A stretch of 64,000 nucleotides of DNA, from assembly GCA_965248265.1 (NCBI GenBank), contig CBDFJF010000002.1, positions 3,616,001 to 3,680,000 of the forward strand, read 5' to 3'. The position numbers and the translations under genes were made by a program. The notes under the pieces were generated by a model, which searched no databases, was not told where the DNA came from, and worked only from the letters and a program-made list of their open reading frames with translations. Numbering within the stretch: position 1 is the stretch's first letter; the number at the start of each line of letters is the position of its first letter. Of this stretch, positions 7,325-62,766 are shown in pieces. Source of the stretch: Candidatus Latescibacterota bacterium. GTDB taxonomy: Bacteria; Latescibacterota; UBA2968; UBA8231.

Positions 7325-7431
7325 TGAAGCTGGGTCTTTTCTGTTTTGTTGAATGGATCGGGCGTCAGGTGTGCCGTATGGCTGTGGCTGACGCAATGAG
7401 GAAGCTGGTTCTGTTCGGCGGGAATAGGAGA

Positions 7432-9703: not shown

Positions 9704-9716
9704 CGATCGGACCCTG

Positions 9717-43051: not shown

Positions 43052-43104
43052 GTATTCGATCCTTGTTTCTGTGGTGTGGAGATAAATACTCCGCTCTCTT
43101 CTCC

Positions 43105-48143: not shown

Positions 48144-48777
48144 CCAGTACCTGCCTCCTGTCATCCCCGTGATCAGCGGGATCCCCGCCATCGGCGTGAT
48201 GCTCATGAGTGGATTCGATGTCTGCGAACAACGGTAGATCCCTCCGCAGCTGTGCTTCCACCTGACCGTGACAGGAAGGGCAGACGGAGACCAGGTAATC
48301 CAGTCTGTTGGCCTCGATGTTTGATTTGAAGCGGGTGTATGGAATGGTGTGATGGACGTGCAGTCTCTTACCGAGCTCTTCTTCCGTGACGCCGCAGACT
48401 CGGCAGGTATAACGATCACGCTCCCTGGCAGCTTTCGACTGTACACCCCAATTTGCCCCGCGCTGGCGCCAGCTCGCCGCCTTCGTGCTCACGAGCGTAC
48501 GGCGTTTGTCACCCTGCACATCCTCCCTCGCCCACTCGCGCCTGCACTCAGCGTTGCAGTAGTAGTTCTCAAGCTCCTGGGCAAGAAGCCATTGCGGCAC
48601 CTTCACGGGCGCTCCACAGTGGCGACAACGCGGCGCGGTTGCGACTGAAGAACCCGATGACCTGCGCCCCCGCTTCTTGCGGGACGCAGCAATACCTCTG
48701 AGCGCAGCCGATCCCCTATCCCCACTGAGCGGCAGACACAGCTGTGACCCCGCAGGATCATGTTGGGTGATGTCCAT
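48133..48777 (-). CDS. HNH endonuclease with N-terminal Cys4 zinc-binding motif
   Basis: CRHC..YYCNAEC; GANW..ARERDRYTCRVCG..LHVHHTIP..EANRLDYLVSVCPSCH. Confidence 0.85.
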   Translation of the reverse strand: MDITQHDPAGSQLCLPLSGDRGSAALRGIAASRKKRGRRSSGSSVATAPRCRHCGAPVKVPQWLLAQELENYYCNAECRREWAREDVQGDKRRTLVSTKAASWRQRGANWGVQSKAARERDRYTCRVCGVTEEELGKRLHVHHTIPYTRFKSNIEANRLDYLVSVCPSCHGQVEAQLRRDLPLFADIESTHEHHADGGDPADHGDDRRQVLGGN

Positions 48778-48947: not shown

Positions 48948-49349
48948 TCATTGCTGGTCGGAAAGGATAAAGTCGACCTCAAGGGTGTCCCTGATGGCGA
49001 TCGCCTGCGCGATAATCTGGGCCCTTCTGGGACGGCCGTCTCCCGGGCTGGTCAGCAGGGCGACAGCCAGACCGTCCTGGGTCTCCTTGGAGTCCTCGAT
49101 CGTGCCAACGGTCGTAGCGAAAACGACGCGGGTGCTGTCAGCAACCGGCTGTCCCCCTCGTTTGATGGTCGCCCAGACCTCGGCGGTTGCCGTGCTGTCT
49201 TCGATGGAGATGCGATCTGGAAAAGCGGACAGTTCCAACGTCAGCAGTGACTCGTCGTCGGAAGACGAGGTTACCGAGAAGGCGCAACTCCAGGCCCATG
49301 TCAGGGCTGCCAGAGCGGCCATTGATGTCATGGAGAATCGGGTCATCAC
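48948..49349 (-). CDS. Small putative lipoprotein with invasin/Big_1-like Ig domain
   Basis: Hydrophobic leader ending AWSC; ATAEVWATI..GQPVADSTRVVFATTVG..TQDGLAVALLTS resembles Big_1. Confidence 0.6.
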   Translation of the reverse strand: MMTRFSMTSMAALAALTWAWSCAFSVTSSSDDESLLTLELSAFPDRISIEDSTATAEVWATIKRGGQPVADSTRVVFATTVGTIEDSKETQDGLAVALLTSPGDGRPRRAQIIAQAIAIRDTLEVDFILSDQQ

Positions 49350-49359
49350 TCACACACCA

Positions 49360-50883
49360 TTATTCACGGGCAAAATCCGGCGGAATCCAGGTAAACTGAG
49401 TCGCCATGGAAGCCAGTAGATTGCCAACCAGATTGTCCAGGGCCTTTTCGTGTACAGACTCTATTTCTGCCGCGGAGCGCCGTACCGTGATGTCGGGACG
49501 ATCCGCAGGCAACAACCTCATCCTTTTGCGGGCGTGCCCGGCAGCCGATACCTGTTGGGTAAAGGCTTCCATTTCGGTCTTGGTCGGGCTCGTGAACCAC
49601 ATCACCCGATAGCGCATCTCCAGAGACACGGCGGTCTCCGGAATCTCGAGGATATAGGGGATCTTGATCCCAGCAAACCTGTCAGTGTTGTAGCGTGACA
49701 CTTCTCCGGAAATGACCACGTCAACGCCGAGCTTGCGGCCCAGTTCGATGGCCTCTGGCGGGGAAAGCATGCCGTGGGTCCGCACCCCACTGAACAACTT
49801 CGGATCGACCACCTCGAGGCTGTCGTGTGGCGCCAGCAGGGTCTTTATCCTGTCGGTCAGTCGTTCACCGGCCCGATAATCCTCGAACCCTTCGAAATCC
49901 AGGATGGCAATCCTCAGGACCTGCTCGGGCTCGTATATGCGTTTGGGCTTTGGCACGGGCTGGTACAGGCTCATTCGGCTCTCCAAGCGGCGCCGACCGG
50001 TCAAATAGCCATGCATGCGGATTCCAAGGGTCGTGGCCGAATTGGTCGGATAATCTTGAAAGCCGAATTCCCTATTCATCTCCAATTCCAGGCCGCGGTA
50101 GATCTGCACCCGGGTGCCCAGCTTGAAAACGGTTTCCGCGCTCGACTGTTCGGACGTCACGACCCGCGTTTCGTACTCCGCATTCAGACTGTACCAGCGA
50201 TTGCGACGACCGTGTTCGAGTCCTATTCCGTAGACCAACTGCGACGGGACGTCAAGGTTGCCGGAGCGGAACAGACCACCGTTGAGGTACACCGAGACGG
50301 GCGAAAAGTGAAGGTCCATCAAAAACAGCAACCCGATATCGACCGCCTCGTTACTGAACGGCCTCACGCCGCCGACCTTGTCGATGCCGGTCTCCCCTTT
50401 GTACCCCAAAGGCAAACCGATGGACATCTGAAACGCCCGGTACACGCCTGACGGAATCTTCGACGGCGTCGCATACTTTATAGCCACCACTGGATCACTG
50501 GTCCCATACTTCGACAGGCCCGCCACCGAGTCCAGGAAAAACGGCACGGTCAAGCCGATATCGATGCTATTCGAAAACCCGTAGCCCAGACCGTACAGAC
50601 CGGTATAGGTACTGCCGTCGCCCAGCTCTGGAACAGAAATCCGCTGTGTTCGATTAACCGCCCGCAAACGGAAGCGCGACTTGCCCAGGGGCTCGGCACT
50701 GTGGACGAAATTCAGTCCCTGGCCGGCTGGCATGGCAAACGCCGAGTTCCTCGGTTGCTGAAGCAGACTCAGATCCTGAGCCTGGGTCCCCCCGGCAAGG
50801 CAACCGAGGGCGACGATGATCAGCAGCGGCACTGAACCGTAGCGCATTCGTTGGGCCGATTGGATGAGATCGGATAGACGCAT
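49360..50883 (-). CDS. Secreted/outer-membrane protein: predicted beta-barrel plus C-terminal CsgG/TolB-N-like domain
   Basis: Signal peptide ending TQA-Q, alternating amphipathic strands (YGLGYG, VYLNGG, YGIGLE, FKLGTRV), then RIAILDFE..AIELGRKLGVDVVISGEV. Confidence 0.55.
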   Translation of the reverse strand: MRLSDLIQSAQRMRYGSVPLLIIVALGCLAGGTQAQDLSLLQQPRNSAFAMPAGQGLNFVHSAEPLGKSRFRLRAVNRTQRISVPELGDGSTYTGLYGLGYGFSNSIDIGLTVPFFLDSVAGLSKYGTSDPVVAIKYATPSKIPSGVYRAFQMSIGLPLGYKGETGIDKVGGVRPFSNEAVDIGLLFLMDLHFSPVSVYLNGGLFRSGNLDVPSQLVYGIGLEHGRRNRWYSLNAEYETRVVTSEQSSAETVFKLGTRVQIYRGLELEMNREFGFQDYPTNSATTLGIRMHGYLTGRRRLESRMSLYQPVPKPKRIYEPEQVLRIAILDFEGFEDYRAGERLTDRIKTLLAPHDSLEVVDPKLFSGVRTHGMLSPPEAIELGRKLGVDVVISGEVSRYNTDRFAGIKIPYILEIPETAVSLEMRYRVMWFTSPTKTEMEAFTQQVSAAGHARKRMRLLPADRPDITVRRSAAEIESVHEKALDNLVGNLLASMATQFTWIPPDFARE

Positions 50884-50890
50884 GGCAAGA

Positions 50891-51619
50891 TTACAATCCG
50901 CTCGAAACGGTCTCCTGCAAGTTGATCGAGGCGACACTCAAGCTGTCCAACAACTGCCCCGGGTTCGAAAACTTGTAGTTCCTGTTGACCAGGCGCAGTT
51001 GAGCAGCCGAGTTGTTCGGGTCCGGTCGATCGACGGCACTGTAGCGCCCCAGATGAAAGTAGGCCTCCGACAACATCAACCTGACATGCCTGTCGTCGAG
51101 GTTGTCATGGCCGAGTTGGCGGCCTTGAGAATCAAGACGTGTGGCCGAGTCGTAGTCAGGCTCCGCCTCCAAGGCGTCGATGGAGTACTGCACCACATCA
51201 CCGAAATCGCCCTGTGCCAGCGAAACACCTGCCCGTCCGACCCAGGCATCGGCGTTGCGACGATCCAGGGTGGTCGCGATGTCGAATGCAAGCTCTGCAG
51301 CATCGAGATTCTGCATGGTCATGAACGACCAGCCAATTCCGTTCTGGGCCTCTGACTTCACCTCATTCTTGACGGCATCGACACCCTCAAGACCGTCGGC
51401 CTCATCAAGTGTGGCCGTGAAAAAGTCGATGGCCCCTTCCAGGTCGCCATCGTTGTACTGGGTCCAGTCGATGGGCAATCGATCCTTCAGCCGCTCCTCA
51501 CGCTTCTGTATTTCTCCGGGCCCGATCCCACTACCACCACCACAGGAGAGCAGAAACGCGCCTGCCAGGCACGCTACTCCCGATCGGATCACTGTCTTTT
51601 TTAGAATCTTCTTCTGCAT
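50891..51619 (-). CDS. TPR-containing lipoprotein
   Basis: Lipobox FLLSC after a basic N-terminus; TPR-like AQNGIGWSF, NADAWVGRAGV, LSEAYFHLGRY. Confidence 0.75.
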   Translation of the reverse strand: MQKKILKKTVIRSGVACLAGAFLLSCGGGSGIGPGEIQKREERLKDRLPIDWTQYNDGDLEGAIDFFTATLDEADGLEGVDAVKNEVKSEAQNGIGWSFMTMQNLDAAELAFDIATTLDRRNADAWVGRAGVSLAQGDFGDVVQYSIDALEAEPDYDSATRLDSQGRQLGHDNLDDRHVRLMLSEAYFHLGRYSAVDRPDPNNSAAQLRLVNRNYKFSNPGQLLDSLSVASINLQETVSSGL

Positions 51620-51653
51620 CCCGCTTTCCTCCAGCTCCTGTTTCGGTCTTCTA

Positions 51654-54600
51654 CTACTTCAACAACGTCATCCTCTTCGTGATTCCAGCACCAGCGCCTC
51701 CTTCTACCCGGTACAGATAGACACCACTGGCCGCCTTTCTGCCATCTGCATCGCGCCCGTCCCATAGGACTTCGTGGCTGCCGGAGCGCACCTCCTGATC
51801 ATCAAGCAAGAGTCGGACCATCTGGCCTGCCGTGTTGTAGATGGCGAGTCGTATCCGCGCACCGGAGGCGCTGCCCTCACCGGACTCAAACAGATTCCAG
51901 TCAGGAACAATGAACGGTATGGTGGTCTCTGGGTTGAATGGATTCGGGTAGTTGTTTCCCAGTTCCAGCATCGTGGGGAGGGTGTTTCCTCCTCCCTCTA
52001 CTTTGATCCCATGCGTCGTCCTGTTCGCCGCCCGATCCTGAACGGTGATCTCCAGGTAGTGATCGCCTGCGCCTACCGGGTCCGTCGGAGTCCATTCCAA
52101 CAGGCCGCCATCGATCGTCACGTCACCGACCCGCACGCCATCCAGGCTTACGGATATCGTTTCCAGGTCGACGCCACTGCCTCCATCCGTCAGCATCGCC
52201 TGCAACATCGAGCGTTGTGCGGTCGGTGCACTGATAATCTGGATCTCGGGACCGCGACCATCTCGCATGATGGCATAGCGGCCAAAGCGACTGAAACTCA
52301 TGACCTCGGTGGACCCGGCCACGTAGACCCACTTGCCACTCTCCTGCCGGTACAAGCCGTCTGCAGCGTCGTACTTTGCCGAGACCAACCTGAGGGCCGC
52401 CGCTTGCTTGAGATCTAGCTGTACGGGAAACAGATTCACGGCGGCACGCATGGTGAGTTCGGGGTGCAGTCCATCATTCGACCCGCCAGCCCCGCTCACC
52501 ACCATCTGCTGGTCTGAAACTCTCTCACTGTCCCGCTGCAACAGAACCTTGGTATCGCGCTCGACCGCACCAGCAGGTACCGTTACTTCGACATCACCCT
52601 GGCGGAGTGCAATCGCTTTGCCGGCAGTCGCCGTGCCAATGACGACGGAGGCAGAAGCCTGAACGTCAGTTCCTAGTTGGGTCTTGGCCTGCGCGGAAAC
52701 CGTCACTTCGCCTGCCTGGCCGGGCGGAATGACTGCACGGCCCGACCAGATCAGAATGCCCCTGCTTTCCAGTTGGGTCTCAATCTGAGTCACCGCAACG
52801 GTCGTATCGGTTGTGCCAAAGGAGAACACGACCGATGGAATACTCGCCAGTTCAGCCCTCGACATCACGAACAGGTTGAGGAACTCGACGTTGGTGGCAT
52901 TCGGTATGACGCGGACGGAGAACGAGATCTCGTCGGGCGACTCCACGACACGAACGACCATGTCCCCGAGCGCCCGGAATCCTCCACCCAGCTCAACGGA
53001 GAACGACAGCGTGTCCGAGCCTATTCGGTTGCCGAGAGCCGTGAGCGTGAGCTTGTGAGGCGGTAGCGGATCTATGAACGGTATCGTTATGGTCTGTCCT
53101 GACACCGACCAGATTGCCGTATTGGCCTCAGTGCCGTCCGGAAGGAAATCATTCAATGTGATGGTGCTGTCGGCGTCCCCCGCTGCAATGACAATCTCAG
53201 TAAACTCCTTCAGCGGCAGCGTGGCCAGTGATGGGTCTTGAGCGATGACGTTGATCGTGTCTCGGCCGGTCACGCCGATGGCAGTGTTCGTGGCGATGAA
53301 GACGACCTCCGTCTTCAAAGTATCAGATGAGAAGGCGGTTACCGTGTTGTCATCATTCACTTTGATGAAGAGGCCCTGTCCATCACCGACGATTTTTGCG
53401 CTCCATTCGATAACCGAATCCGGATGGGCTTCCGAGTCAAAGATGAAATCATTCAGCTGGAGACCACTGAATGCACCGCCGGCGATAAAGGATATGTCTG
53501 GTATGGAACGCAACGTAAGAATGTCACTCAGCCCAAAGTAGCGGACGGTCGTACTCGCTTTCTCAGTGCGCCCGAGGGAATCCGTGGCGACGAATTCCAC
53601 CGTATCAGTACCGGCGCTGTCGCTGAACGCGATCACCTTGGTGTCCCCACTCAGCAGGATGAAACCGACAGAGCCCGGCCTGGTGATATTCCACGTTATG
53701 CTGCTGCGAGAAATCAGCGGGGAAATCGTCAGATGATCATCCAGATCCAGTATTTCCGTCGGGATCAACCCCACCTCCGCCTGCAATGGCCCGATAGCGG
53801 GCTTGATCTCGAACAACCCCTCGCCCCCCTTCCCACCAGACTTAACGGTCACCAGCACCGTATCCTGCCAGGAGCGCCCACCGGGATCGATTACCTGAAA
53901 AATCACCGTTTCAGTCCGAAAAATAGCGCTTTCGGGGGCAAAAAAGGTCACCAGATTCGACAGCGGCGCGACACCAACCTGAAGATTGTCGCGATCGAAG
54001 TCACCGAGCACCTGCCAGGTCAACTCCTGCGGAGTATTGTCCGCGTCATGCGAGTAGTCGTCGAGGTCTATGTCCTTGTTCTGGTCGCCCCGATCCAGGA
54101 CGATATCCGGAATGCCGCCGACGACAGGACGGCCATCGGAGGAGTAAATCCGCAGCGTCAATTTGTCCGTCTGGTTACCCGGATCGGATACCGTCAGATC
54201 GACGGACTCGTAGCCGACGAAATCGGGAGGCGACTGTACGCTTAGCTGGCGTGCCTCATTGACGCTGATGTCCGTCGTATGCAACGGCGGGACAGCCCAT
54301 CCCAGCTCATTGTCAGCGTTGTCGGGGTCCTCGACGAAATCGTCCAGGTTCTGCAGGTCGCGCCCGCCTCCGGAAGAGAGCCGAATTGGAAAATCACTCG
54401 GAAAGACATCTGGAGGCAGGGCCTCGGCTGCCTCGAAAAAGATGATCATCGTGTCCTTGAGACTGTCGGGATCGGCTACTTCGAAGCTGACGCGACCATC
54501 GCCGACGAAAAGGGCGTCGCCCGTAACCTGCACGAGCTTGCTACCGTCTCCGCTGCGCGTCGTGTCGGCGAAAAAATGTCCTTCAGGGTCATCTACCCAT

Positions 54601-56075
54601 CTGAAAACGAGGCTGTCCAGCGGTGTGTCTACATCCCTGACGATCTCGTCGAAGCGGAAATTCCTGGTGCTGCCCCGGCTGATACGCGGATTGCGCTCGC
54701 TTTCGGGCAGAATGAACTCGGGCGCATCGGCCACACCTTCGACCTCGACGATGACTCGCAGCGTATCTCGCCCACGGGCTTCATCCTGAACCAGCACCCG
54801 CAACGAGTCCACGCCGGAAAAATCCGGCAGCGCCCACACCAGCAACTGGTGCGTAAGCTGATCGTCATCCCCTCTGATTCGCGCGTTCGTAGCGTTGGTC
54901 CCAACCGGGAGCGAGACCGCGTACACAAGGCCGTCATCCGGGTCCGCCAAATCCGGATCATCGACCATCCTGTCGAGATCGACTCCCTTGAACGCTATTC
55001 GTGCATCGAGTGAAAAACCTTCGGCGATAAAGGTGTGCTCGTCTTCCCTGAAGCGCACAGTGTCTCGTTTGACCCCGTCCGGTCCTCTTTCCAACGGACG
55101 ACCCAGAAAATCTCGGACAAATACAGGCGGATTATTGACGATTATATCAGAGAACTCGAACGAAGAAGGCACCGGTCCGGGAAAACGAACTCCGGCAATC
55201 GAATCCTGTGCTGTCCATATGACTCGTGTCCGTCCCGACCAACCCAGAAGAGGACGCACCTTGACGATGTTGCCATTGGGATCGATTTCGATCTCGAGGC
55301 TGTCAGTGGAGACCGGCGGTGTCAGTGAAAAGCTCCACTTCAGAGAGTCGATCGGTGACAGAACATTCGAGACGTAGGTGTTGAGTGAACCGATCTGTAC
55401 CGAGTCGGCCTCGCCAGGAAGCAGGATTACGTCTGGTATGTCAAAGAGTTCGAGGCCAAGGATATTGATCTCCATCCCCTGCGGAGCCGATCGAAACTGC
55501 CGCTCGCCCCCATCTGCAAGGATGACGCGTGTTTCGCTGATGGGATTTGAGTGGATACGTATTTGTGAGTTTTCCGCCGGCCGAATGGCTCGGAGTTGAA
55601 ACGTAGCGACCACGCCCTGGCCCGAACGACTTCGCTGTGCACCCACGCCTGGCCCCAACACGACCCGGTAATCGAGCAACATCAGATCGTCAGTGACCCC
55701 AAGGGCGTCATCGGACGAAACGAGCAGGTTGCGCTGCTCACCAGCTCCTTCAAACAACGGCCCGGGCACGAACGGCTGGTGCCCGGCGTTCGCCTGTCTC
55801 GATGTGTCGGCACCAGCGGTTATGTCGACGGGCCTCTGATCGGTTACAATGAAATTGTCCCTGGGAACGGTGACGAAGACGGCGATGCCGGAGGCTTCGA
55901 TGTTGCCCAGATCAGCCAGAATCTCAATGGTAACCGACTGGCCTATCTGGAGCTGGACCTGATCCCTGTTGGTGCCAGCCTCTCGCAAGCGGATGCTGTT
56001 CTGAGCGGTCGCCTGACTGGCGCCAATGACGACGAAGCACAGAACGACAAGGCATAATGTTCCGGCTACTTTCAT
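51654..56075 (-). CDS. Large secreted surface protein: cohesin-like N-domain, tandem cadherin-like repeats, C-terminal FlgD-Ig/T9SS-like sorting domain
   Basis: Signal peptide (ATA-Q); repeats with IPD..LDD[FY]..D[PA]DN..EL.W..V.DP; linkers VNNPP and VADAP; C-terminal NNYPNPFNPET..IYN..WDGRD..ASGVYLY..KRMTLLK. Confidence 0.85.
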   Translation of the reverse strand: MKVAGTLCLVVLCFVVIGASQATAQNSIRLREAGTNRDQVQLQIGQSVTIEILADLGNIEASGIAVFVTVPRDNFIVTDQRPVDITAGADTSRQANAGHQPFVPGPLFEGAGEQRNLLVSSDDALGVTDDLMLLDYRVVLGPGVGAQRSRSGQGVVATFQLRAIRPAENSQIRIHSNPISETRVILADGGERQFRSAPQGMEINILGLELFDIPDVILLPGEADSVQIGSLNTYVSNVLSPIDSLKWSFSLTPPVSTDSLEIEIDPNGNIVKVRPLLGWSGRTRVIWTAQDSIAGVRFPGPVPSSFEFSDIIVNNPPVFVRDFLGRPLERGPDGVKRDTVRFREDEHTFIAEGFSLDARIAFKGVDLDRMVDDPDLADPDDGLVYAVSLPVGTNATNARIRGDDDQLTHQLLVWALPDFSGVDSLRVLVQDEARGRDTLRVIVEVEGVADAPEFILPESERNPRISRGSTRNFRFDEIVRDVDTPLDSLVFRWVDDPEGHFFADTTRSGDGSKLVQVTGDALFVGDGRVSFEVADPDSLKDTMIIFFEAAEALPPDVFPSDFPIRLSSGGGRDLQNLDDFVEDPDNADNELGWAVPPLHTTDISVNEARQLSVQSPPDFVGYESVDLTVSDPGNQTDKLTLRIYSSDGRPVVGGIPDIVLDRGDQNKDIDLDDYSHDADNTPQELTWQVLGDFDRDNLQVGVAPLSNLVTFFAPESAIFRTETVIFQVIDPGGRSWQDTVLVTVKSGGKGGEGLFEIKPAIGPLQAEVGLIPTEILDLDDHLTISPLISRSSITWNITRPGSVGFILLSGDTKVIAFSDSAGTDTVEFVATDSLGRTEKASTTVRYFGLSDILTLRSIPDISFIAGGAFSGLQLNDFIFDSEAHPDSVIEWSAKIVGDGQGLFIKVNDDNTVTAFSSDTLKTEVVFIATNTAIGVTGRDTINVIAQDPSLATLPLKEFTEIVIAAGDADSTITLNDFLPDGTEANTAIWSVSGQTITIPFIDPLPPHKLTLTALGNRIGSDTLSFSVELGGGFRALGDMVVRVVESPDEISFSVRVIPNATNVEFLNLFVMSRAELASIPSVVFSFGTTDTTVAVTQIETQLESRGILIWSGRAVIPPGQAGEVTVSAQAKTQLGTDVQASASVVIGTATAGKAIALRQGDVEVTVPAGAVERDTKVLLQRDSERVSDQQMVVSGAGGSNDGLHPELTMRAAVNLFPVQLDLKQAAALRLVSAKYDAADGLYRQESGKWVYVAGSTEVMSFSRFGRYAIMRDGRGPEIQIISAPTAQRSMLQAMLTDGGSGVDLETISVSLDGVRVGDVTIDGGLLEWTPTDPVGAGDHYLEITVQDRAANRTTHGIKVEGGGNTLPTMLELGNNYPNPFNPETTIPFIVPDWNLFESGEGSASGARIRLAIYNTAGQMVRLLLDDQEVRSGSHEVLWDGRDADGRKAASGVYLYRVEGGAGAGITKRMTLLK

Positions 56076-56132
56076 TTTTCCCCTAAAAAACTCCGCAAAA
56101 TACACATGATGGACCCCTTCACACGGTTAAAG

Positions 56133-56148
56133 GGCAAAATGCGTGCCT
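56133..56148 (-). promoter_or_regulatory. sigma54 (-24/-12) promoter for the cadherin-like protein gene
   Basis: Minus strand AGGCACG-CATT-TTGC has exact GG-N10-GC spacing, about 60 nt upstream of the ATG. Confidence 0.65.
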
Positions 56149-56279
56149 GCGGACGAACGTCGATTCCATCGACGTTTTATGCCTTAGCGCTCTGCTGTAT
56201 TCGACCTCCTTTTCGCTATCAATAAATATAACAGTCTGGTGATCGAGCGGTTCCCTGGCCGCCATGGTGGGTGTTACGC

Positions 56280-56326
56280 AAAAAAAAGAGAGGCGCACCC
56301 GGGACAATCCCGAGTACGCCTCTTTT
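56280..56326 (-). terminator. Rho-independent terminator of the 2135-aa gene
   Basis: Minus strand AGAGGCGTACTCGGGA-TTG-TCCCGGGTGCGCCTCT followed by C and T8; the stem pairs fully with G-U only on this strand. Confidence 0.9.
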
Positions 56327-56358
56327 CAACTACTACCTCATGTAGTCGCCCAAGGCGG

Positions 56359-59300
56359 CTACTTGACCAGCATCATCTTGCGGATCTGCGAGAATTCACC
56401 GGCTTCCAGGTTGTAGAAGTAGACGCCGCTGGCGACGGCCCTACCCTGGGTGTCGGCACCATCCCACTTGAGGTTGTAGGTCCCCGCCTTCATCCTGTTG
56501 TCCACCAGCGTGCGAACGGTCTGTCCGAGCTGGTTGTAGATGCGCAGCTTGACGTCCCTTGCCGTGGGGATGTCGAACTTGATCTCCGTGGACGGATTGA
56601 AGGGGTTCGGGTAGTTCTGGTGCAGAGCCGCTATCGTGGGCAGTGCCGGTGCGCTGTCAACCTGCATCTGCACGCCTTGATAGTTGCTGTTCACCAGGTT
56701 ACCCGAGGCGATGTCGATGACACCGGGCTCATCGCCGAGCGTTACGAAATGCACGGTAACGAGATCAGCATCACCCCTCGCCGACCAACCCCGGCCGATA
56801 CGTGAACCAGTAACCTCGATCACGCCCGGCTGGACCCGCTGGAAGAAGAGCGAGCCGGCGGAGTTCTCGTCGAAGATGTCGCCCTGCTCCACGGCCTGAT
56901 CGGCTTCCAACGGCCTGACTAACTCAGGATCGTAGGTCATCGTCATACCGTAAGCAGTGACATCGTTCATACCCTCGACCGTCGCCGTCAGCTCGAAGAC
57001 CTTACCAGGCCACCAGGCTTCGACGTCTTCCATGCCCTCTACGCGGGCGATGGCACCGGCATTGTCTCCACCCACCACCGGCTTGAAGACCGGAGGTGCG
57101 CCGAACTTGTTGAAGTTCGTTGAGACGAACCCGATGTCGAGGGAGTTGATCACTCCGTCATTGTTGATGTCGGCGTCGCGGACGAAACCCGCATCAGCCG
57201 GTGTGAGGTTCCACACCGCGAAGATCTGGTTGGCGTCGGCGATGTCGACCTGATTGTCGCCTGTGGCGTCACCACCGAGCAGGAAGCCCAATGGGGTCGC
57301 CGGTGACAGGTCGCCGAGGGCGTCAGAGCCAAACGTCGGCTCGATAGCCTGCGTCAACCCGTTGAACAGGTTCAGCGTGTCGGTGCGACCCGTGACATAG
57401 CCAGGAGCCTTCACCGTCAACTCATAGATTCCTGGTGGAATCTGGATGAGCTGGAAGGTGCCGAAGCTGCTCGTGGGCACGTTGACGGAGTCCTCGAGGA
57501 CGCCGCCACCCAGATCCACTGGCGTACTGTCGTTGGATGCGATGTAGGCCTGGTCGGTGACGTCCTTGGTGCTACCGACCTCGCGCAAATGCACATCCAT
57601 CGTGTCAGCGTAATCCGAACGACCCTCCAACGGTACCGTCACCAGCAGGCGAGCCCGCGGTGTCAATATAACATTGGCGTCACGTGTCGGAGCTGCCAGT
57701 TGATTGATACCTCGATACAGCGCGGTGGTGCGCCCACTCTCCGTCGACCACTGCAACAGCGTGTCGAGCGGGGCGCCGCCGTCGAACTGCTTGACCAGCA
57801 GTCGTAGCGTCGCCGACACCTGAGAGCTGTCGAACGGCGTCGTCACGCGGCCGATAACCTCACCGGTCACGGAGAACTCGACGAAGTTCAGTTTCAGGAA
57901 CTGGGCATCACCCGTTGAGGTGTCGTTCTGGGCGATCGTGCTCGGCGCCTGGAAGGCCCCGACCGAGTCCACAAACGGCTGCACACCGGCTGTCACCGTG
58001 TCCTGATCGATCACCTCGAAGTACCTACGTGGCACGTCGAGATGAAGGGCGAACAGGTCAGTACTGCTACCCTGGGAGTTGATGAGGATGTCGAAGTCCA
58101 GGGTATCTCCGGAACTGGCAGTCAGCGCAGCCGGACCCATCTCAATGCTGTAGAGCGGATCCGTGCCGACCACGGACAGCGTTCCAGGTGCTTTCGACAG
58201 CACGGCTCTCTGTGCCTGCGAGCCGATACCGGTCGCGACCGAGTCGATCACTTCACTGATGTAGATATTCTCACCAAACCGTGGATTCGAACTGCCAGCG
58301 ATGAAAATATCGAACGTGGAGCCGCCCGCCAGCGCCGGGAACGAGGTCGTCTTCGTGTCCCAGTTGAAGAACTTGGGATCGCTCTCACGAATCGTCTGGA
58401 CGTGCGCGTTGGTCGTATCCGCACCAGTGATACTGTTGATGAGCAGCACGTCGGCATTACCGGTGCCGAGGCCGTTCATGTTACCTTCCAGCTGCGTCAG
58501 CGTGGAGTACTTGTTCGCTGGCGCGGCGTAGAGACGCAGGTAGGCATCGTCGGTGCCGGTGCCGTCATCGATCAGGAAAGCATCGTATTCCAGACGAATG
58601 ACATCACCGTTGATGAGGGTCTGTCCACCCGACGGCGGCGTCTTCATCGTCACCTTCGGTGCGCTGGAGGCGGGGCTCTCCTGTGTGCCGACCAGGAGCA
58701 CAGCGCCGCCCAACGATACACGGACGTTACCTGAGGAGCCGTCGTTGACGACCGCGTAGACCCACGCGGTATCAGTCGTGGCACCAACCTGGTAGGCGAA
58801 CGGGTTGGCCGAGTTGCCCGGCAAAGCAGCAACCGGAGCTGGGTTCTGCCGGAACACCTTCGGCAGGACACCCGGAGGATTGGCAAGATCCCAGACGAAC
58901 TGGTCTCCGCCCCCTTCGTCGTCCTCGGACAAACCGCTGATGATGAGCACGGCAGCACCCGAGTCAGTCCCCGTCGTAGCTACCAGGTCGGTCGAGTCCG
59001 TGCCAGAGAAGTCCTTGACGGCCGGATCGAGACCTGTGTAGTAGAGGGAGATCGTGGCGTTGTCATCGATGTCGACATCGGATCGACCACGCTGCCACTG
59101 GAACGTGTACTGCGTCTGCCCCTGCGTTGTGTTGATCTTGCGAGTTTCACCCGCGAGTGGTGCCGTGAATTCGAAGGCCGGCGAGTGGCGGATTGCGAGC
59201 GTCTGGGTAGACTTGCCCACTATCGTGCTGTCGCCGTCGGTCACCACAGCGTAGATGAAATAATTGCCCTGGGCAATCACCGAATCACCGGCGGCGCCCT

Positions 59301-62300
59301 GCGCGGTGACATCGAAGTCGAACTCGAAGTCGTCGTCCGTGCGCAGAGAGTCGGACAGCTGGACCGGTGTAGCACCAGCCAGTTCCAACGTCGCGTTCGG
59401 GAATATGCCGGCAGATATCGACGCATTGCTGTCGACCAAAGCGCTGGAGGTCGAAACAAAGAGCCGCACCTGGGCGTTGTCGTTGAAGTCGACGATCGTG
59501 AACAAGACCTTGAACGGATTCGTCTTCGACAGATCATCGAACTCACCGGTGTCGACGGTGTCGGTACCGGTCGGCGTGATCTGCTTGACCAGCGGAATAT
59601 GCCGGATGGTCAAGGGACCTTCACTGACGTCGAACACCGGGGGGTTGGCCCCGTCGTCGGCGACAGCGTAGATGAAGAAGGTTCCGTCCAGGATCTTGGT
59701 GATCGACTGGAAACCGTAGGCCGTCTGCAAGGTCAGGCCCGGGTTGTCCCAGGAGTAATCCTGGATATTGGTGTTGGATGTGCTTTCGGTCAGATCACCA
59801 CTACCGTCGGCGGCCAGTGATCCACTGGTAAAACCGGCGGTAAAGGCGTCGTTCTCATCGACGATGAGATTGCCGAAGGTGCGGATGTCGAGGACGCTCG
59901 TCAGACCGTTGTCCGGATAAGCGTACAGCTCCATCTGCAGTGAGTCGGCTCCCGTCGGACCTGTGGTAGCACCGACGTCGTCGTCATCGTCAAAGATCAC
60001 GTAACGGATCGTGAACGACTCATTGGCGAAACCGCTTGTGCTCGCACTCGGCGCCACAACTCGGACCACCGGTGCCACGTTGGCAGCGACGATGGCGATG
60101 TTGGCACCCATCTGGAAATAACTGCCAACCGGTGCCTCGCGTTCATCGCCTTGAGCCGCGTTCACGCCGACGTCGGCGACACCCGGGCGGGCGGCATCCA
60201 CACGGACCCCCTTGACGTAGGTGCCTGCGTGAGAACCTGCCGCGACGGCTCCGGGCCTTAGACTAATGCTCTGCGACACGCTCTGTTGCCCCGTGCCGCT
60301 AGGTCGCGCAGCCGAGCTCTGACTGATCACGAACAGGTTGTCAGCGGAGTCGGATGCCAGCACGTTGAGCTTGACCAGCAAGCCCACCTTGTCGGTATCG
60401 TCACCCCACTCGCCAAGGCCGACAGAGCCATCCTCGTCGTTCTGGCCCTGCCACACACCGTTGTCGTTCGTCGCCTCGACATCGTTGGCGATGCCTTTAG
60501 CGACGAAGGTGAGCGGAAAGTTTGCCGGGTCCAGGCTAGCAACGCCCATCGATGAGAACTGGATACTACGCCACTGCCCGGTCAGGAACCCACCCGGCGC
60601 ACTTGACGTCGACGGCGTTGTCGCACCGATACCAGCCCCGTTGGCGTTGTCGCCGACGGTGATGTGGACCAGGTTTCTGGACGACGTGGCCTGCGGGTTC
60701 ACAGGATTATAAACCAGGTTGTAGGCGAACCCGCCGACTGGCGTGGACTTGTCCTCATCCGTGATCACACGGCCGAGGATCTTGAAGTACGGAAGCGGAG
60801 CGATATTAGAATTGCTCAGCGCTGCCGAACCGCGTCCAGCCTGGTCCTGTCCCTGTGCAACTGCCAGGGGTCCCGTAGCGAGACCGGCGGCTATCGGCGA
60901 CCCACCCACGAAGGTCAGGTAAACGTTCGAATCCCCGGAAATCATGGCGATGTCGGGCTCGAACAGTTCCGGGTGCTTCTCGAGCACGCCGTCGTCATGG
61001 ATTGCCCCGTTGTTGGCAGCCGAGGCCACCACCTGAGGCAACTCCCACTCCTGCCCGTTGAAGCGGCTGTACAAGATTTTGACAGCCTGGCCGGTACCCC
61101 CAGTTACATCTCTCGAAACAGCGTCATTGCTGCCGGCGCCGGAGAAGACGATGTGCAGATCTCCCTGGTCGGCGCGGCGGTCGTCGACGACGGCTCCGAT
61201 GCGGTCAGAGAAAGCCCAGTGGTTCTCTATCTGGTAGCCACGCATGTTCTGGAACAGCGGGGCCGGATTACCCGTGGTGTATGTTGCAGCGGCGGCCACG
61301 TTGGTCGGGAACGCCTGGGTGGGCGTGCCGTCGAACGAGCCAGGACCGATGCCACCGTCGTAGCTGTAGAAATCGTAGTTGATGTTCTCGTCGTTGCCGT
61401 CAGTACCGGCGGCGGCGTCCGTGTGTTTCCACAGCACGTAGATCCGGTCCGGACTGCGCTGCCTGTCGACGACGACGGTGGAAAAGATATGTACTGCGCT
61501 ATTGCCCACAGCTTGCGCTGCAAAGGTGCGGTCACTCGATAGTCCGCCACCAGCAGTATTGGCTGCAATTATAGCAGCCGTGGGCCCCAAGCCGAGGTTG
61601 GCGGGCTCGTCATCGAGTGACCCGACGACATCTCCGCCCACACCTTGGTTCCAACCCGCCGCGGACACGTCATCCCACACGCTGGCTGGAACGGTCTTGT
61701 GCACGATAGACTCTACACCGGCTCCGTTTTCGTCATACCAGGAAACGTGAAGAACATCGTCATCCCCCACGGCGATGTCCGGAGCCCGACCACTGGATCC
61801 GTCTAGATCGACGCGCACGCCACCGCGACTGGCCGTATTGCCGGTCGAACCGATCTGCACGGCTTGCGCGCTGCCACCCGTGAGGCTGTCAGCGTCCATC
61901 TTGGCCACGATGACATCCTCAAAATTGGCCGTAGCGTTATTGAGCTGCCGCTCGTAGACGATGAAACAGTCGTCCGTCAAGGTGATGGCCATACGCGGGA
62001 ACGCATTGCTGCGCCCCTGGACAGTGGCCGTGTCGTTGACGACAACCGCATCGTTCGCCGGCAACCAGGAACTGCCGCCGTCATTGGAGTAGTTGAAGTA
62101 GATATTGTCGTACCCCTTACGGTCATTACCGGTACCAGTGGTAGTCTGGTTTTCGGTTATGCCTCCGGTCACGCCATCCGGAGAATGGTCCATCGCGTAC
62201 ACCACACGCGGATTTCCTCTGCCGTCAACGACGATATCGACGGTCGAGAAACCAGAGTCCATCGTCATGCTGGAGGTGATCAGATCAAAGCGCAGAGTTC

Positions 62301-62766
62301 CAGATACGGAGACCGTATCCAGAAAACTCTCGCCGCCATTCACGCTCTTGGCGTACACGACGCCATAAACCGGTGTAGCGAAAGCGCCATTGTCGGTGTT
62401 GATGGTTCCGCGCTGCTGGACCCAGGCCCGGTGAATGAAACCGAACTGGTCAATGCTAATGGCCTGGGACATGTAGGCAGCGTTCCCGGCCTGCGCGGCG
62501 GGAAAGAACGGAACACTCTTTTCGAGCTTCTGGAAATTCCCGATGACGGGAAAATCCGCATTGGCCGCCTCGTTCAAGTCGACTCGCACCGTCACGTCCT
62601 TGTCCGTTACGAACGTGCTGGTGGTCGAACTGTCAGCGGCATTGAATCCAACAGGCGTCTGGTTCTCAAACACCGGCTGGGCATCGGCATCACCGCCGAA
62701 CCCGAAGCCAGCTATCAGAACCGCGACAGCCGTTCGGAAAATTTCACGCCTAAGACTCATAATCAA
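56359..62766 (-). CDS. Giant secreted surface protein: BNR/Asp-box region, four Ig-like repeats, cohesin-like, dockerin, cohesin-like, FlgD-Ig/T9SS-like C-terminal domain
   Basis: Signal peptide (ADA-Q), Asp-boxes SVNGGESF and SNDGGSSW, dockerin pair GDATGDNQVDIAD / DINNDGVINSLD, QNYPNPFNPST..WDG..ASGVYFY..RKMMLVK; GGAAGGAG RBS. Confidence 0.88.
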   Translation of the reverse strand: MIMSLRREIFRTAVAVLIAGFGFGGDADAQPVFENQTPVGFNAADSSTTSTFVTDKDVTVRVDLNEAANADFPVIGNFQKLEKSVPFFPAAQAGNAAYMSQAISIDQFGFIHRAWVQQRGTINTDNGAFATPVYGVVYAKSVNGGESFLDTVSVSGTLRFDLITSSMTMDSGFSTVDIVVDGRGNPRVVYAMDHSPDGVTGGITENQTTTGTGNDRKGYDNIYFNYSNDGGSSWLPANDAVVVNDTATVQGRSNAFPRMAITLTDDCFIVYERQLNNATANFEDVIVAKMDADSLTGGSAQAVQIGSTGNTASRGGVRVDLDGSSGRAPDIAVGDDDVLHVSWYDENGAGVESIVHKTVPASVWDDVSAAGWNQGVGGDVVGSLDDEPANLGLGPTAAIIAANTAGGGLSSDRTFAAQAVGNSAVHIFSTVVVDRQRSPDRIYVLWKHTDAAAGTDGNDENINYDFYSYDGGIGPGSFDGTPTQAFPTNVAAAATYTTGNPAPLFQNMRGYQIENHWAFSDRIGAVVDDRRADQGDLHIVFSGAGSNDAVSRDVTGGTGQAVKILYSRFNGQEWELPQVVASAANNGAIHDDGVLEKHPELFEPDIAMISGDSNVYLTFVGGSPIAAGLATGPLAVAQGQDQAGRGSAALSNSNIAPLPYFKILGRVITDEDKSTPVGGFAYNLVYNPVNPQATSSRNLVHITVGDNANGAGIGATTPSTSSAPGGFLTGQWRSIQFSSMGVASLDPANFPLTFVAKGIANDVEATNDNGVWQGQNDEDGSVGLGEWGDDTDKVGLLVKLNVLASDSADNLFVISQSSAARPSGTGQQSVSQSISLRPGAVAAGSHAGTYVKGVRVDAARPGVADVGVNAAQGDEREAPVGSYFQMGANIAIVAANVAPVVRVVAPSASTSGFANESFTIRYVIFDDDDDVGATTGPTGADSLQMELYAYPDNGLTSVLDIRTFGNLIVDENDAFTAGFTSGSLAADGSGDLTESTSNTNIQDYSWDNPGLTLQTAYGFQSITKILDGTFFIYAVADDGANPPVFDVSEGPLTIRHIPLVKQITPTGTDTVDTGEFDDLSKTNPFKVLFTIVDFNDNAQVRLFVSTSSALVDSNASISAGIFPNATLELAGATPVQLSDSLRTDDDFEFDFDVTAQGAAGDSVIAQGNYFIYAVVTDGDSTIVGKSTQTLAIRHSPAFEFTAPLAGETRKINTTQGQTQYTFQWQRGRSDVDIDDNATISLYYTGLDPAVKDFSGTDSTDLVATTGTDSGAAVLIISGLSEDDEGGGDQFVWDLANPPGVLPKVFRQNPAPVAALPGNSANPFAYQVGATTDTAWVYAVVNDGSSGNVRVSLGGAVLLVGTQESPASSAPKVTMKTPPSGGQTLINGDVIRLEYDAFLIDDGTGTDDAYLRLYAAPANKYSTLTQLEGNMNGLGTGNADVLLINSITGADTTNAHVQTIRESDPKFFNWDTKTTSFPALAGGSTFDIFIAGSSNPRFGENIYISEVIDSVATGIGSQAQRAVLSKAPGTLSVVGTDPLYSIEMGPAALTASSGDTLDFDILINSQGSSTDLFALHLDVPRRYFEVIDQDTVTAGVQPFVDSVGAFQAPSTIAQNDTSTGDAQFLKLNFVEFSVTGEVIGRVTTPFDSSQVSATLRLLVKQFDGGAPLDTLLQWSTESGRTTALYRGINQLAAPTRDANVILTPRARLLVTVPLEGRSDYADTMDVHLREVGSTKDVTDQAYIASNDSTPVDLGGGVLEDSVNVPTSSFGTFQLIQIPPGIYELTVKAPGYVTGRTDTLNLFNGLTQAIEPTFGSDALGDLSPATPLGFLLGGDATGDNQVDIADANQIFAVWNLTPADAGFVRDADINNDGVINSLDIGFVSTNFNKFGAPPVFKPVVGGDNAGAIARVEGMEDVEAWWPGKVFELTATVEGMNDVTAYGMTMTYDPELVRPLEADQAVEQGDIFDENSAGSLFFQRVQPGVIEVTGSRIGRGWSARGDADLVTVHFVTLGDEPGVIDIASGNLVNSNYQGVQMQVDSAPALPTIAALHQNYPNPFNPSTEIKFDIPTARDVKLRIYNQLGQTVRTLVDNRMKAGTYNLKWDGADTQGRAVASGVYFYNLEAGEFSQIRKMMLVK

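Follow-up and report, generated by a model that had tools for sequence, protein, structure and literature searches.

Introduction

The general O-glycosylation system of Bacteroidota, with Bacteroides fragilis, Flavobacterium and Tannerella among its users, acts on the sequon D-(S/T)-(A/I/L/V/M/T), as set out in a review of the field (PMC12871550), and the same source gives mannose as the linking sugar in several species, in agreement with the original prediction for the locus described here. The review also notes a similar enrichment of the motif in the sister phylum Fibrobacterota and describes the attaching enzyme, the core-glycan flippase and the ligase of Bacteroidota as still missing (PMC12871550). 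In Tannerella forsythia, type IX secretion system (T9SS) cargo proteins are reported to be heavily O-glycosylated at the sequon, with 19 and 11 sites in TfsA and TfsB and 90 more in 16 further cargo proteins (PMC8729774). Our literature search returned no identified Bacteroidota transferase, and nothing on glycosylation in Latescibacteria.

In eukaryotes, TMTC1-4 are O-mannosyltransferases of cadherin domains, and are GT-C enzymes with a TPR tail. Their sites are not known to be defined by a D-S/T-h sequon (where h is the hydrophobic third residue). Extracytoplasmic glycosylation can also be carried out by three-component systems (PMC11127046), consisting of a GT2 polyprenyl-phosphate sugar synthase, a flippase and a GT-C transferase. 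The known examples of these modify glycans, not proteins.

We analysed a 64-kb stretch of DNA (the window), within which D-(S/T)-(A/I/L/V/M/T) is over-represented in exported proteins and not in cytoplasmic ones. The tripeptide, the requirement for Asp and not Glu, the restriction to exported proteins and the third-residue preference are all as in Bacteroidota O-glycosylation. The window differs in that the relatives of its proteins are labelled Latescibacterota or Handelsmanbacteria, in that the bias was seen in some of the clade's protein families and not in others, and in that its sites are predicted.

Two giant secreted proteins with T9SS sorting domains

The exported proteins that are central to this analysis are encoded by genes on the minus strand. 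The largest is a secreted protein of 2135 aa (56359..62766) with a signal peptide, cohesin/dockerin-type and Ig-like regions, and a T9SS type A C-terminal sorting domain. It matches FlgD_ig (40 bits), Por_Secre_tail (27.8 bits, cutoff 27) and Dockerin_1 in Pfam, and TIGR04183 in NCBIfam (35.4 bits, cutoff 23). The second giant has 1483 aa (51654..56105), probably starting at Met11, and contains a signal peptide, a tandem array of about ten Ig-like repeats, each roughly 100 aa long, and an FlgD_ig-type C-terminal sorting domain (CTD). Its Pfam matches are FlgD_ig (34.6 bits, cutoff 27) and Big_9 (27.3 bits); it scores below the cutoffs for TIGR04183 (20.6 bits) and Por_Secre_tail (21.2 bits), and its C-terminal domain aligns with other CTDs, with PNPFNP invariant. 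A T9SS type A sorting domain is thus assigned to both giants, to the 2135-aa protein by scores over both cutoffs and to the 1483-aa protein by FlgD_ig and the CTD alignment. When proteins of 330-1050 aa were searched with the sorting domain alone, 33 of the matches were fragments from the same family and 87 were unlabelled cargo proteins. No T9SS machinery was found within the 64-kb window.

The giants resemble the T. forsythia S-layer proteins TfsA and TfsB in large size, richness in repeats, surface location, possession of a T9SS CTD and number of sequons. This likeness is one of architecture, and the TfsA and TfsB sites are glycosylated whereas those in the window are predicted.

Three smaller exported proteins are encoded nearby. 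The first is a TPR protein of 242 aa (50891..51619; Pfam TPR_16) with a lipoprotein-like signal (LLSC), in which two of three D-[ST] dipeptides belong to sequons. The second is an exported protein of 525 aa (49360..50937) that has no Pfam or NCBIfam match. In the protein atlas, its cluster occurs most often in Candidatus Latescibacterota. It has two D-[ST] dipeptides, at residues 136 and 372, and each is a sequon. The third, of 133 aa (48948..49349), has a weak Invasin_D3-like match and a non-canonical lipobox.

The sequon is enriched in the giants and depends on aspartate

The original prediction had reported 21, 22 and 3 sequons in the 1483-, 2135- and 133-aa ORFs, and an exact recount gave the same numbers. 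They make up 21 of the 27 D-[ST] dipeptides in the 1483-aa ORF, 22 of 33 in the 2135-aa ORF (15 of the 22 within residues 1069-1800) and three of four in the 133-aa ORF. The low counts reported for cytoplasmic proteins were also reproduced, with three sequons among five D-[ST] in LepA (5522..7396, minus strand; one of 16 cytoplasmic controls) and 1/5, 2/7 and 0/4 in three AsnB-like proteins, and the four motifs quoted from TPR tails of TMTC-like proteins (RDSTD, NDSTF, QDSAL and FDSTY) were all located.

Counts were compared with 2000 shuffles each of the whole protein, of 60-aa windows and of 20-aa windows. For the 1483-aa protein the shuffle means were 7.9, 7.5 and 7.5, respectively, and 21 or more sequons occurred in 0, 1 and 0 of 2000 shuffles. 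For the 2135-aa protein the means were 12.2, 12.7 and 12.2, and 22 or more occurred in 7, 11 and 7 of 2000. The richness in sequons that had been predicted is therefore upheld by both recount and shuffles. The control motifs were flat, none being enriched at the 5% level in the two giants. Observed/expected counts, for the 1483-aa and then the 2135-aa protein, were 9/7.8 and 8/12.2 for the reversed motif, 5/4.4 and 2/4.4 for E[ST]h, 6/2.9 and 8/7.7 for N[ST]h, and 8/8.1 and 12/14.3 for G[ST]h. In the giants, a hydrophobic third residue follows 43 of 59 Asp-Ser/Thr dipeptides, compared with 189 of 472 Ser/Thr preceded by other residues (Fisher p = 1.5e-6), and among 19 residue types preceding Ser/Thr, Asp has the highest share of hydrophobic third residues. 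The third-residue spectrum in the window favours L (3.4x), V (2.2x) and T (1.5x), with D, G and P depleted. The shuffles, control motifs and Asp-dependence test together indicate that the enrichment survives correction for D/S/T content and local composition. They support a bias that is directional, depends on Asp and not Glu, and favours L, V, T or M in third place, which are properties of the Bacteroidota sequon.

The enrichment could instead be a chance or selection effect arising from two unusual proteins. The finding was picked for looking enriched, and the 133-aa protein does not reach significance by itself (3 sequons against a mean of 1.2, reached by 211 of 2000 shuffles). However, the observed counts in the giants are reached by so few whole-protein shuffles (0 and 7 of 2000), and the Asp dependence is so marked, that chance accounts poorly for them, and the data from relatives given below add to this.

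The bias separates exported from cytoplasmic proteins

We sorted window segments into compartment classes using a simple hydropathy rule, the segments being set after first looks at the data. The two giants together contain 43 sequons against 19.5 expected. A further 14 exported segments, which total 4002 aa and consist largely of helical TPR tails, contain 18 against 10.0 expected (Poisson p = 0.014), and 16 cytoplasmic proteins contain 12 against 16.1. The hydrophobic residue follows 18 of 27 D[ST] in the other exported segments and 12 of 39 in the cytoplasmic proteins, small classes whose size leaves some room for chance, and the contrast between exported and cytoplasmic proteins in the window is significant (Fisher p = 0.004). 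Secreted proteins are thus enriched and cytoplasmic proteins are not, on the 64-kb scale of the window. The TPR tails of the TMTC-like proteins alone have 9 sequons against 4.8 expected, and these sites are independent of one another because they occupy different alignment columns.

Comparison with T9SS cargo of other FCB groups

For calibration we used 78 loci, drawn from the best 80 of 649 stretches in a genome scan. In T9SS cargo from records labelled Bacteroidota, Ignavibacteria or Chlorobi, the hydrophobic residue follows 220 of 353 D[ST] (0.62), while the cytoplasmic ORFs of the same records give 89 of 217. Seven other FCB groups (records labelled Gemmatimonadota, KSB1, Cloacimonadota, Marinimicrobia, Krumholzibacteria, Latescibacterota and Fidelibacterota) are at background, with 88 of 241 (0.37), group labels here being record titles and some groups having only 1-3 cargo proteins. 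In the Bacteroidota-type set, 6 of 14 cargo proteins have a ratio of at least 1.8, compared with 0 of 13 in the seven-group set and both of those in the window. The third-residue spectrum of the window also resembles that of the Bacteroidota-, Ignavibacteria- and Chlorobi-labelled cargo. As the bias is present in Bacteroidota-labelled cargo and absent from the seven other groups, beta-rich cargo composition alone is insufficient to produce it. The calibration hints that Calditrichota and Zixibacteria are users of the system and that Gemmatimonadota, KSB1 and Cloacimonadota are non-users.

The one Latescibacterota-labelled locus among the 78 (L010) has no bias, with 23 sequons against 22.9 expected (1.01x) in its cargo and 5 against 5.2 in its signal-peptide ORFs. 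One L010 protein has seven repeats homologous to those of the window, and these contain 2 sequons against 4.2 expected, from which we conclude that the repeat fold itself needs no motif. Cargo of the Porphyromonas gingivalis T9SS can avoid the motif, and unenriched families are for this reason weak evidence either way.

Sequons are conserved as whole tripeptides across relatives

The named relatives of the window proteins are Candidatus Latescibacterota, Latescibacteria, Handelsmanbacteria or 'Gemmatimonadetes' MAGs, and none is labelled Bacteroidota. In 66 relatives of the 1483-aa protein there are 1168 sequons against 451 expected (2.59x), with the reversed motif at 1.01x and E[ST]h at 0.98x. 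At 13 columns, 80% or more of the 56 aligned sequences keep the full tripeptide; at the same level, there is one column for the reversed motif and none for the E-, N- or G- controls. Ser and Thr swap at these columns (e.g., T33/S23 and S38/T18). In 69 close relatives of the 2135-aa protein the sequon is at 1.63x and the reversed motif at 0.76x, and 80% or more of the 52 aligned sequences keep the sequon at 14 columns. The 525-aa family also shows the bias, with 44 sequons against 26.8 expected in 40 relatives, and both sites of the window protein are retained in its closer relatives.

Every one of the 66 relatives in the 1483-aa family has the bias, as do 68 of the 69 close relatives in the 2135-aa family, in alignments that are not dominated by near-identical sequences (38-87% and 49-93% identity, respectively). 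Together with its recurrence in the 525-aa family, this makes an origin by chance or selection of the finding hardly credible.

The distribution of the sites raises a more substantial alternative, in which the D-S/T-h tripeptides bear no sugar and serve these families structurally or functionally, for example as caps at the strand starts of Ig-like repeats or as residues of a turn or metal site, and their likeness to the sequon is a coincidence. In both giant families the sequon excess lies wholly within deeply conserved columns. In columns held by fewer than 25% of sequences, the sequon is less frequent than the reversed motif (161 against 239 instances in the 1483-aa family, and 104 against 210 in the 2135-aa family), and there is therefore no sign of ongoing site gain. 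Six of the 13 conserved columns in the 1483-aa family correspond to two recurring positions in the Ig-like repeat, at the starts of the last two strands. In seven aligned repeats of the window protein, the first of these reads DSL/DGR/ESV/ETV/DTV/EVV/DTL and the second DTL/DTM/DKL/DTV/AST/DTI/GDM. Tandem cadherin-like/Big_9 repeats of many phyla bear a 'G-x-D-S-F-x-Y' motif, which we also count towards this alternative. Phe is tolerated in third place, where one column of the 1483-aa family has it in 8 of 56 sequences and one column of the 2135-aa family in 36 of 52; in known sites, Phe at this place is rare. Finally, the bias is missing (0.87x) from a sister family of 18 proteins that are distantly related to the 2135-aa protein (33-36% identity), as it is from L010. 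One member of this sister family shares a locus-tag prefix with an enriched relative of the 1483-aa protein. Among PDB sequences, a profile built from the seven window repeats found nothing below E = 0.24. An AlphaFold model of a single repeat, built from the seven-repeat alignment and too poor to rely on (pLDDT 50.2), would put DSL at a strand start and DTL just before the next strand.

Against a purely structural role, seven of the 13 conserved columns are off the recurring positions, no control tripeptide is similarly conserved, and the homologous repeats of L010 do without the motif. Beta-rich cargo of the seven other FCB groups is at background, and the bias in TPR tails and small exported proteins (18/27, compared with 12/39 in cytoplasmic proteins), which is spread over non-homologous sites, is left unexplained. 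Structural elements without a sugar are thus a possibility that we take seriously without considering it probable.

TMTC-like enzymes as candidate transferases

Nine TMTC-like genes form an array on the minus strand (7470..28201), within which there are also a PMT_2-type gene (19720-21462) and one of GT4 type (23372-24559). Each encodes a multi-pass N-terminal domain and a TPR tail, with matches to TPR families in all nine (E = 1e-10 to 1e-47). A loop motif, F-[HQ]-[YF]-D-D, is found at nine sites, directly past the first hydrophobic helix, and D29 and D30 are invariant in all seven aligned paralogs; judging by the predicted sidedness, the acidic D-D motif would sit in the first extracytoplasmic loop. 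The multi-pass N-terminal domain, acidic loop motif and C-terminal TPR tail are shared with eukaryotic TMTC1-4, and Ig/cadherin-like repeat proteins are encoded near the window paralogs. The window differs in having nine bacterial paralogs and in lacking a Pfam TMTC_DUF1736 match, none being found among four N-terminal domains. One of these four matched Pfam PMT at 18.7 bits (E = 0.0014), below the curated cutoff of 22.7. Full-length profiles matched only TPR proteins among PDB sequences, and the N-terminal profile had no match there. A fold model from the seven paralogs was of low confidence (pLDDT 60.8, pTM 0.66), and a Foldseek search of PDB with it gave no match at E <= 0.001. The top sub-threshold matches (TM 0.35-0.43) are nearly all GT-C enzymes (Stt3, AglB, Pmt1/2, Pmt4, ArnT and EmbB), with Pmt2 the best by rmsd (6.0 over 258 columns). 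As a lead only, a protein-atlas look-alike cluster at 0.92 has TMTC_DUF1736 in 85% of its members.

A GT2 glycosyltransferase gene (47175..48446, minus strand; Pfam Glycos_transf_2) has polyprenyl-phosphate sugar synthases (AglJ, ArnC, PgfS and a dolichyl-phosphate hexose transferase) as its best NCBIfam look-alikes, all far below the equivalog cutoffs. Its product may supply the donor to the GT-C enzymes. A second GT2 gene resembling polyprenyl-phosphate sugar synthases is located at 42107-43240. ArnC/AglJ/PgfS-like GT2s and GT-C candidates in a single cluster fit the layout of three-component systems as described (PMC11127046); no flippase was found. An LFG-type locus (metG, a wzx flippase and conserved terminal glycosyltransferases) was not found among the Pfam matches of 40 ORFs in the window, which covers 64 kb of a genome of about 4.1 Mb.

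The original prediction had named the TMTC-like enzymes as candidates for the attaching transferase, and the nine enzymes, fed by the nearby GT2 synthase-like enzymes, might attach the first sugar at D-S/T-h. Their genes share a strand and the 64-kb window with the cargo genes, and the invariant D-D motif, the TPR tails, the PMT match, the atlas cluster, the GT-C enzymes among the top fold matches and the two synthase-like GT2 genes all point in this direction. So does the review, in which the Bacteroidota transferase is still missing and the linking sugar is usually mannose (PMC12871550). However, the paralogs are at least 20 kb from the cargo genes, with polysaccharide-type genes (Wza, Wzz, GT4, AsnB and methyltransferases) between and around them, and a role in exopolysaccharide synthesis is no less likely. 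For a single shared sequon one enzyme would be needed, and not nine diverged paralogs. Look-alike clusters, which also occur in Bacteroidota, are commonest in Pseudomonadota, Gemmatimonadota and Acidobacteriota, where a motif bias has been neither reported nor observed, and the fold evidence is sub-threshold. No TMTC-like gene is present in the 78 calibration loci, an absence that is uninformative because the loci were picked for their cargo genes. The model of the field, as given in the review, is an oligosaccharyltransferase that moves a preassembled core glycan (PMC12871550). What speaks for this part of the original prediction comes down to neighbourhood, and we consider it unlikely. The fuller scheme, in which D-S/T-h sites would be glycosylated and would receive their first sugar directly from a polyprenyl-phosphate sugar through a TMTC/PMT-like GT-C/TPR enzyme, with local GT2s making the donors, strikes us as quite unlikely.

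Discussion

Our preferred reading, to which we give about even odds, is that this organism has a Bacteroidota-type periplasmic O-glycosylation system that recognises Asp-Ser/Thr-hydrophobic tripeptides. The original prediction that the sequon is used in this lineage is borne out in part: Asp dependence, compartment, conservation and calibration speak for it, and the confinement of the excess to conserved columns, the unbiased sister family (0.87x) and L010 (1.01x) speak against it. If the sites are glycosylated, Sec would export the two giants, whose signal peptides are visible in the sequence, and exposed Ser and Thr residues in D-S/T-h tripeptides would be modified in the periplasm. The giants would then be handed to the T9SS via their C-terminal sorting domains, while small exported proteins and the TPR tails in the periplasm would pick up the modification in passing. 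We propose that the sites are conserved as whole tripeptides because selection keeps them.

On this glycosylation reading, the pattern of sequons suggests that the Bacteroidota system may extend beyond Bacteroidota. If the bias marks use of the system, the window adds a lineage outside that phylum, and a patchwork of users and non-users in one superphylum suits phylogenetic profiling for the missing enzymes and dating of the system's origin. If the TMTC/PMT-like scheme were also true, the missing attaching enzyme would be like a protein O-mannosyltransferase and not an oligosaccharyltransferase. Several FCB phyla would then have the system in common as an old trait. For these uncultured bacteria themselves, glycosylation at the sequon would make their giant surface proteins glycoproteins, which would bear on our understanding of their cell surface and of cellulosome-like assemblies.

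Gene content of the window

All large ORFs in the window are located on the minus strand. In window order, Wzz- and Wza-like export proteins are followed by a GHMP kinase, a radical SAM enzyme and LepA, and then by nine TMTC-like genes that form an array (7470-28201), all annotated using Pfam and NCBIfam. After the array is a block of sugar-chemistry genes (GT4, GT2, methyltransferases, three AsnB-like amidotransferases, a deacetylase, PGA_cap and two PMT_2-like genes). An HNH endonuclease domain is encoded by a 221-aa ORF (48133-48798) between this block and the cargo genes, and the genes after this ORF encode exported proteins of 133 aa, 525 aa and 242 aa and two giants of 1483 aa (51654-56105) and 2135 aa (56359-62766). 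Both giants have a signal peptide and a T9SS sorting domain of the FlgD_ig/Por_Secre_tail type. No T9SS machinery was seen in the 64-kb window.

Named relatives of both giants come from Candidatus Latescibacterota, Latescibacteria, Handelsmanbacteria, or MAGs titled Gemmatimonadetes, and Candidatus Latescibacterota is commonest in the protein-atlas cluster of the 525-aa protein. Database relatives of the giants recur as apparently same-genome pairs (P0041/P0122, P0052/P0109, P0055/P0103, P0061/P0106, P0062/P0108 and P0063/P0126), which suggests that the two genes are kept side by side as a conserved pair. The window's own genome also encodes a paralog of the 1483-aa protein (P0003, 66% identical).

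The HNH ORF overlaps a long N-terminal extension of a GT2 ORF (47175-48446) whose Pfam domain begins only at residue 126, so the true GT2 start probably lies further downstream. The three asparagine-synthase-like genes (31312-33201, 34996-36927 and 38987-40969, minus strand) fall in one sugar cluster, one being very divergent (Asn_synthase E = 9e-15, the others 1e-97 and 4e-109). They adjoin PGA_cap, the deacetylase and an M55 D-aminopeptidase-like gene, a neighbourhood that hints at a glycan amidated or decorated with amino acids.

Sequons exceed chance in exported proteins

The original prediction counted the Bacteroidota O-glycosylation sequon, D-[ST] followed by A/I/L/V/M/T (h), in secreted and cytoplasmic proteins of the window. 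Its counts were exact for the 1483-aa (21/27 D-[ST] dipeptides), 2135-aa (22/33) and 133-aa (3/4) proteins, and the cytoplasmic counts were three in LepA and one, two and none in the AsnB-like proteins. We shuffled whole sequences, 60-aa windows and 20-aa windows 2000 times each. The 1483-aa protein has 21 sequons where the shuffles averaged 7.5-7.9 (0, 1 and 0 of 2000 reached 21, respectively), and the 2135-aa protein has 22 where they averaged 12.2-12.7 (7, 11 and 7 of 2000 reached 22). The 133-aa protein, with three against 1.2, is not significant alone (211/2000). Reversed, E-, N- and G- control motifs were not enriched in the shuffle test. In both giants, Asp has the highest share of hydrophobic third residues among all residue types preceding S/T, with h following 43/59 Asp-S/T dipeptides compared to 189/472 for all other residues (p = 1.5e-6). 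The enrichment is therefore real and exceeds composition, persisting after the correction for D/S/T content that had been expected to abolish it if it were spurious.

Window proteins were sorted into three sets by a hydropathy rule. Without signal peptide and sorting domain, the giants have 43 sequons against 19.5 expected (h after 43/59 D[ST]). Fourteen other exported soluble segments (4002 aa: nine TPR tails of the TMTC-like proteins, the Wzz periplasmic part, Wza and three small proteins) have 18 against 10.0 (p = 0.014; 18/27), while 16 proteins without a hydrophobic segment have 12 against 16.1 (12/39). The contrast between exported and cytoplasmic proteins is significant (Fisher p = 0.004), noting that the segments were drawn up after the data were seen and that numbers are small. 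The 525-aa family, which belongs to no known fold family, has 44 sequons against 26.8 expected over 40 relatives, and both sites of the window protein are kept in closer relatives.

Sequons are conserved in both giant families

Enrichment extends to every one of the 66 relatives of the 1483-aa protein (38-87% identity), with 1168 sequons against 451 expected (2.59x; reverse motif 1.01x, E[ST]h 0.98x). We aligned the 56 relatives of at least 1300 aa, leaving out 10 shorter ones. The whole tripeptide is held in at least 80% of these sequences at 13 columns, compared to one column for the reverse motif and none for the E-, N- or G- versions. Asp is nearly invariant at the 13 columns, Ser and Thr swap, and the third residue varies among L, V, I, M and T. 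Among close relatives of the 2135-aa protein, 68/69 are above expectation (1.63x overall, reverse 0.76x), and in an alignment of 52 sequences 14 sequon columns are kept by at least 80%.

Such conservation could also arise if the tripeptides were plain structural elements of these families, free of sugar, an explanation that we consider a serious but lesser possibility. The sequon excess is confined entirely to conserved columns; at columns held by less than a quarter of sequences, sequons are fewer than reversed motifs (161 versus 239 in the 1483-aa family, 104 versus 210 in the 2135-aa family). Approximately 10 Ig-like repeats of roughly 100 aa each make up the 1483-aa protein, and 6/13 of its conserved columns sit at two recurring places in the repeat, the starts of the last two strands. 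The third position is Phe in 8/56 sequences at one column and in 36/52 at another. A G-x-D-S-F-x-Y motif occurs in tandem repeats of this kind from other phyla. No match was found when the repeat profile was searched against PDB sequences. The bias is absent (0.87x) from 18 proteins at 33-36% identity that form a distant sister family of the 2135-aa protein, and one of these has a locus-tag prefix common to an enriched relative of the 1483-aa protein. The cargo of a known user, Porphyromonas gingivalis, can avoid the motif (available text of PMC8729774), so unenriched families weigh little either way. Against a structural role, a Latescibacterota-labelled protein from our genome scan (locus L010) contains seven homologs of the 1483-aa protein's repeats but only two sequons against 4.2 expected, and therefore the repeat fold does not demand the motif. 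In the TPR tails, sequons occupy different alignment columns across paralogs, and are therefore separate events, and they fall within helical repeats, to which a beta-strand explanation does not extend.

The bias follows lineage in T9SS cargo

Scanning genomes with a sorting-domain profile yielded 78 loci from FCB phyla, drawn from the best 80 of 649 stretches. From these loci and the window, 763 ORFs were called, 124 with a sorting domain (two being the window's own). Groups take their names from record titles, and several are very small. Among these loci from the best 80 of 649, observed/expected ratios in cargo were 1.74 for Bacteroidota, 2.02 for Ignavibacteria and 2.08 for Chlorobi, and 0.30 for Gemmatimonadota, 0.83 for KSB1, 1.20 for Cloacimonadota, 0.70 for Marinimicrobia, 0.83 for Krumholzibacteria and 1.01 for Latescibacterota L010; the window's cargo was at 2.19. 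Within the same best 80 of 649, h followed 220/353 D[ST] in cargo and 89/217 in cytoplasmic ORFs of Bacteroidota, Ignavibacteria and Chlorobi combined, and 88/241 in cargo of the pooled negative groups, equal to background. Restricting the comparison to cargo with at least three expected sites, again from the best 80 of 649, a ratio of at least 1.8 was reached by 6/14 Bacteroidota-type, 0/13 negative-group and 2/2 window proteins. The third-residue spectrum of the window resembles that of the Bacteroidota-type set. The sequon measure thus tracks lineage rather than fold, which argues against a purely structural origin and groups the window with known users.

Among loci from the best 80 of 649, cargo labelled Calditrichota (L007, L014, L033, L039, L040, L063, L064, L066 and L077) and Zixibacteria (L001, L020 and L059) had the same Asp-dependent bias as Bacteroidota. 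In Calditrichota, h followed 54/83 D[ST] in 12 cargo proteins, 48/85 in 22 signal-peptide ORFs and 12/30 in cytoplasmic ORFs, and the Zixibacteria fractions were 32/48 versus 13/36 (same best 80 of 649). The reversed motif was also raised (1.54x and 1.65x), making this signal less clean. Eight cargo proteins from Gemmatimonadota-labelled L006, L030 and L038, also among the best 80 of 649, were motif-depleted (7 against 23.7 expected; h after 7/46 D[ST]). The pooled negative groups had a 2.0x excess of Asp as third residue, suggestive of D-S/T-D repeats. Database cargo akin to the giants by sorting domain only included high counts in P0182, P0186, P0199 and P0203 (32 against 12.7, 40 against 8.2, 31 against 12.0 and 22 against 5.6 expected, respectively), one of which is titled Gemmatimonadota, and the opposite extreme of almost no sequons (e.g., P0180, 2 against 10.9). 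This suggests that motif counts are two-humped among lineages or families.

TMTC-like enzymes as candidate transferases

All nine TMTC-like paralogs have a multi-pass N-terminal domain, an invariant F-[HQ]-[YF]-D-D loop motif and a TPR tail. One of four N-terminal domains searched gave a PMT match, below threshold, and the N-terminal profile had no match in PDB sequences. When a paralog-based model (pLDDT 60.8, pTM 0.66) was used in a fold search, the leading hits were almost all GT-C enzymes, none at E <= 0.001. In a protein atlas, a TMTC_DUF1736 cluster resembled the paralogs at 0.92, and the bacterial clusters that resembled them were commonest in Pseudomonadota, Gemmatimonadota, Bacteroidota and Acidobacteriota. 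The best NCBIfam look-alikes of two GT2 genes (47175-48446 and 42107-43240, minus strand) are polyprenyl-phosphate sugar synthases (AglJ, ArnC, PgfS, dolichyl-phosphate hexose transferase and PpgS), all scoring far below cutoffs; these genes may supply donors to the many GT-C candidates. Such an arrangement fits GT-C enzymes that transfer sugars outside the cytoplasm. The proposal that TMTC-like enzymes attach the sugar to D-S/T-h sites is nevertheless a guess that we regard as improbable: the family is far more widespread than the motif bias, nine paralogs fit one sequon poorly, and the acceptor could as well be a polysaccharide made by the surrounding genes.

One TMTC-like gene (7470-9727, minus strand) is split. 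ORF 9131-9727 (198 aa) encodes the N-terminal part, including the FHYDD motif, and ORF 7470-9401, which overlaps it by approximately 270 bases in a different frame, encodes the remainder, including the TPR tail. This is an apparent frameshift, either real or a sequencing error.

Implications for possible O-glycosylation

We judge the chances to be evenly balanced that the D-S/T-h sites are used for Bacteroidota-type periplasmic O-glycosylation before T9SS export. The giants, with their evident signal peptides, would leave via Sec, be O-glycosylated at D-S/T-h in the periplasm, and then be exported by T9SS by way of the sorting domain. Of the original claim that the sequon is used in this lineage, the bias stands as beyond composition, export-linked and conserved, while use itself is plausible rather than proven, and now better founded than on counts alone. 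The closest parallel is Tannerella forsythia, whose T9SS cargo, including S-layer proteins, bears many occupied sequons (available text of PMC8729774), whereas the window sites are predicted. According to the available part of a 2025 review (PMC12871550), Fibrobacterota have similar motif enrichment, the common reducing-end core is mannose, rhamnose and glucuronic acid, and the transferase, ligase and core flippase of the Bacteroidota system are undiscovered. Foreign proteins that carry the sequon are glycosylated by Bacteroides fragilis and Flavobacterium johnsoniae. In the literature searched, including passages of PMC12632263, we found no later identification of the transferase and nothing on Latescibacteria. 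If the sites are used, Bacteroidota-type sequon glycosylation would gain another lineage, and its chief use would be to help track down the missing enzymes through comparison of FCB lineages with and without the bias.
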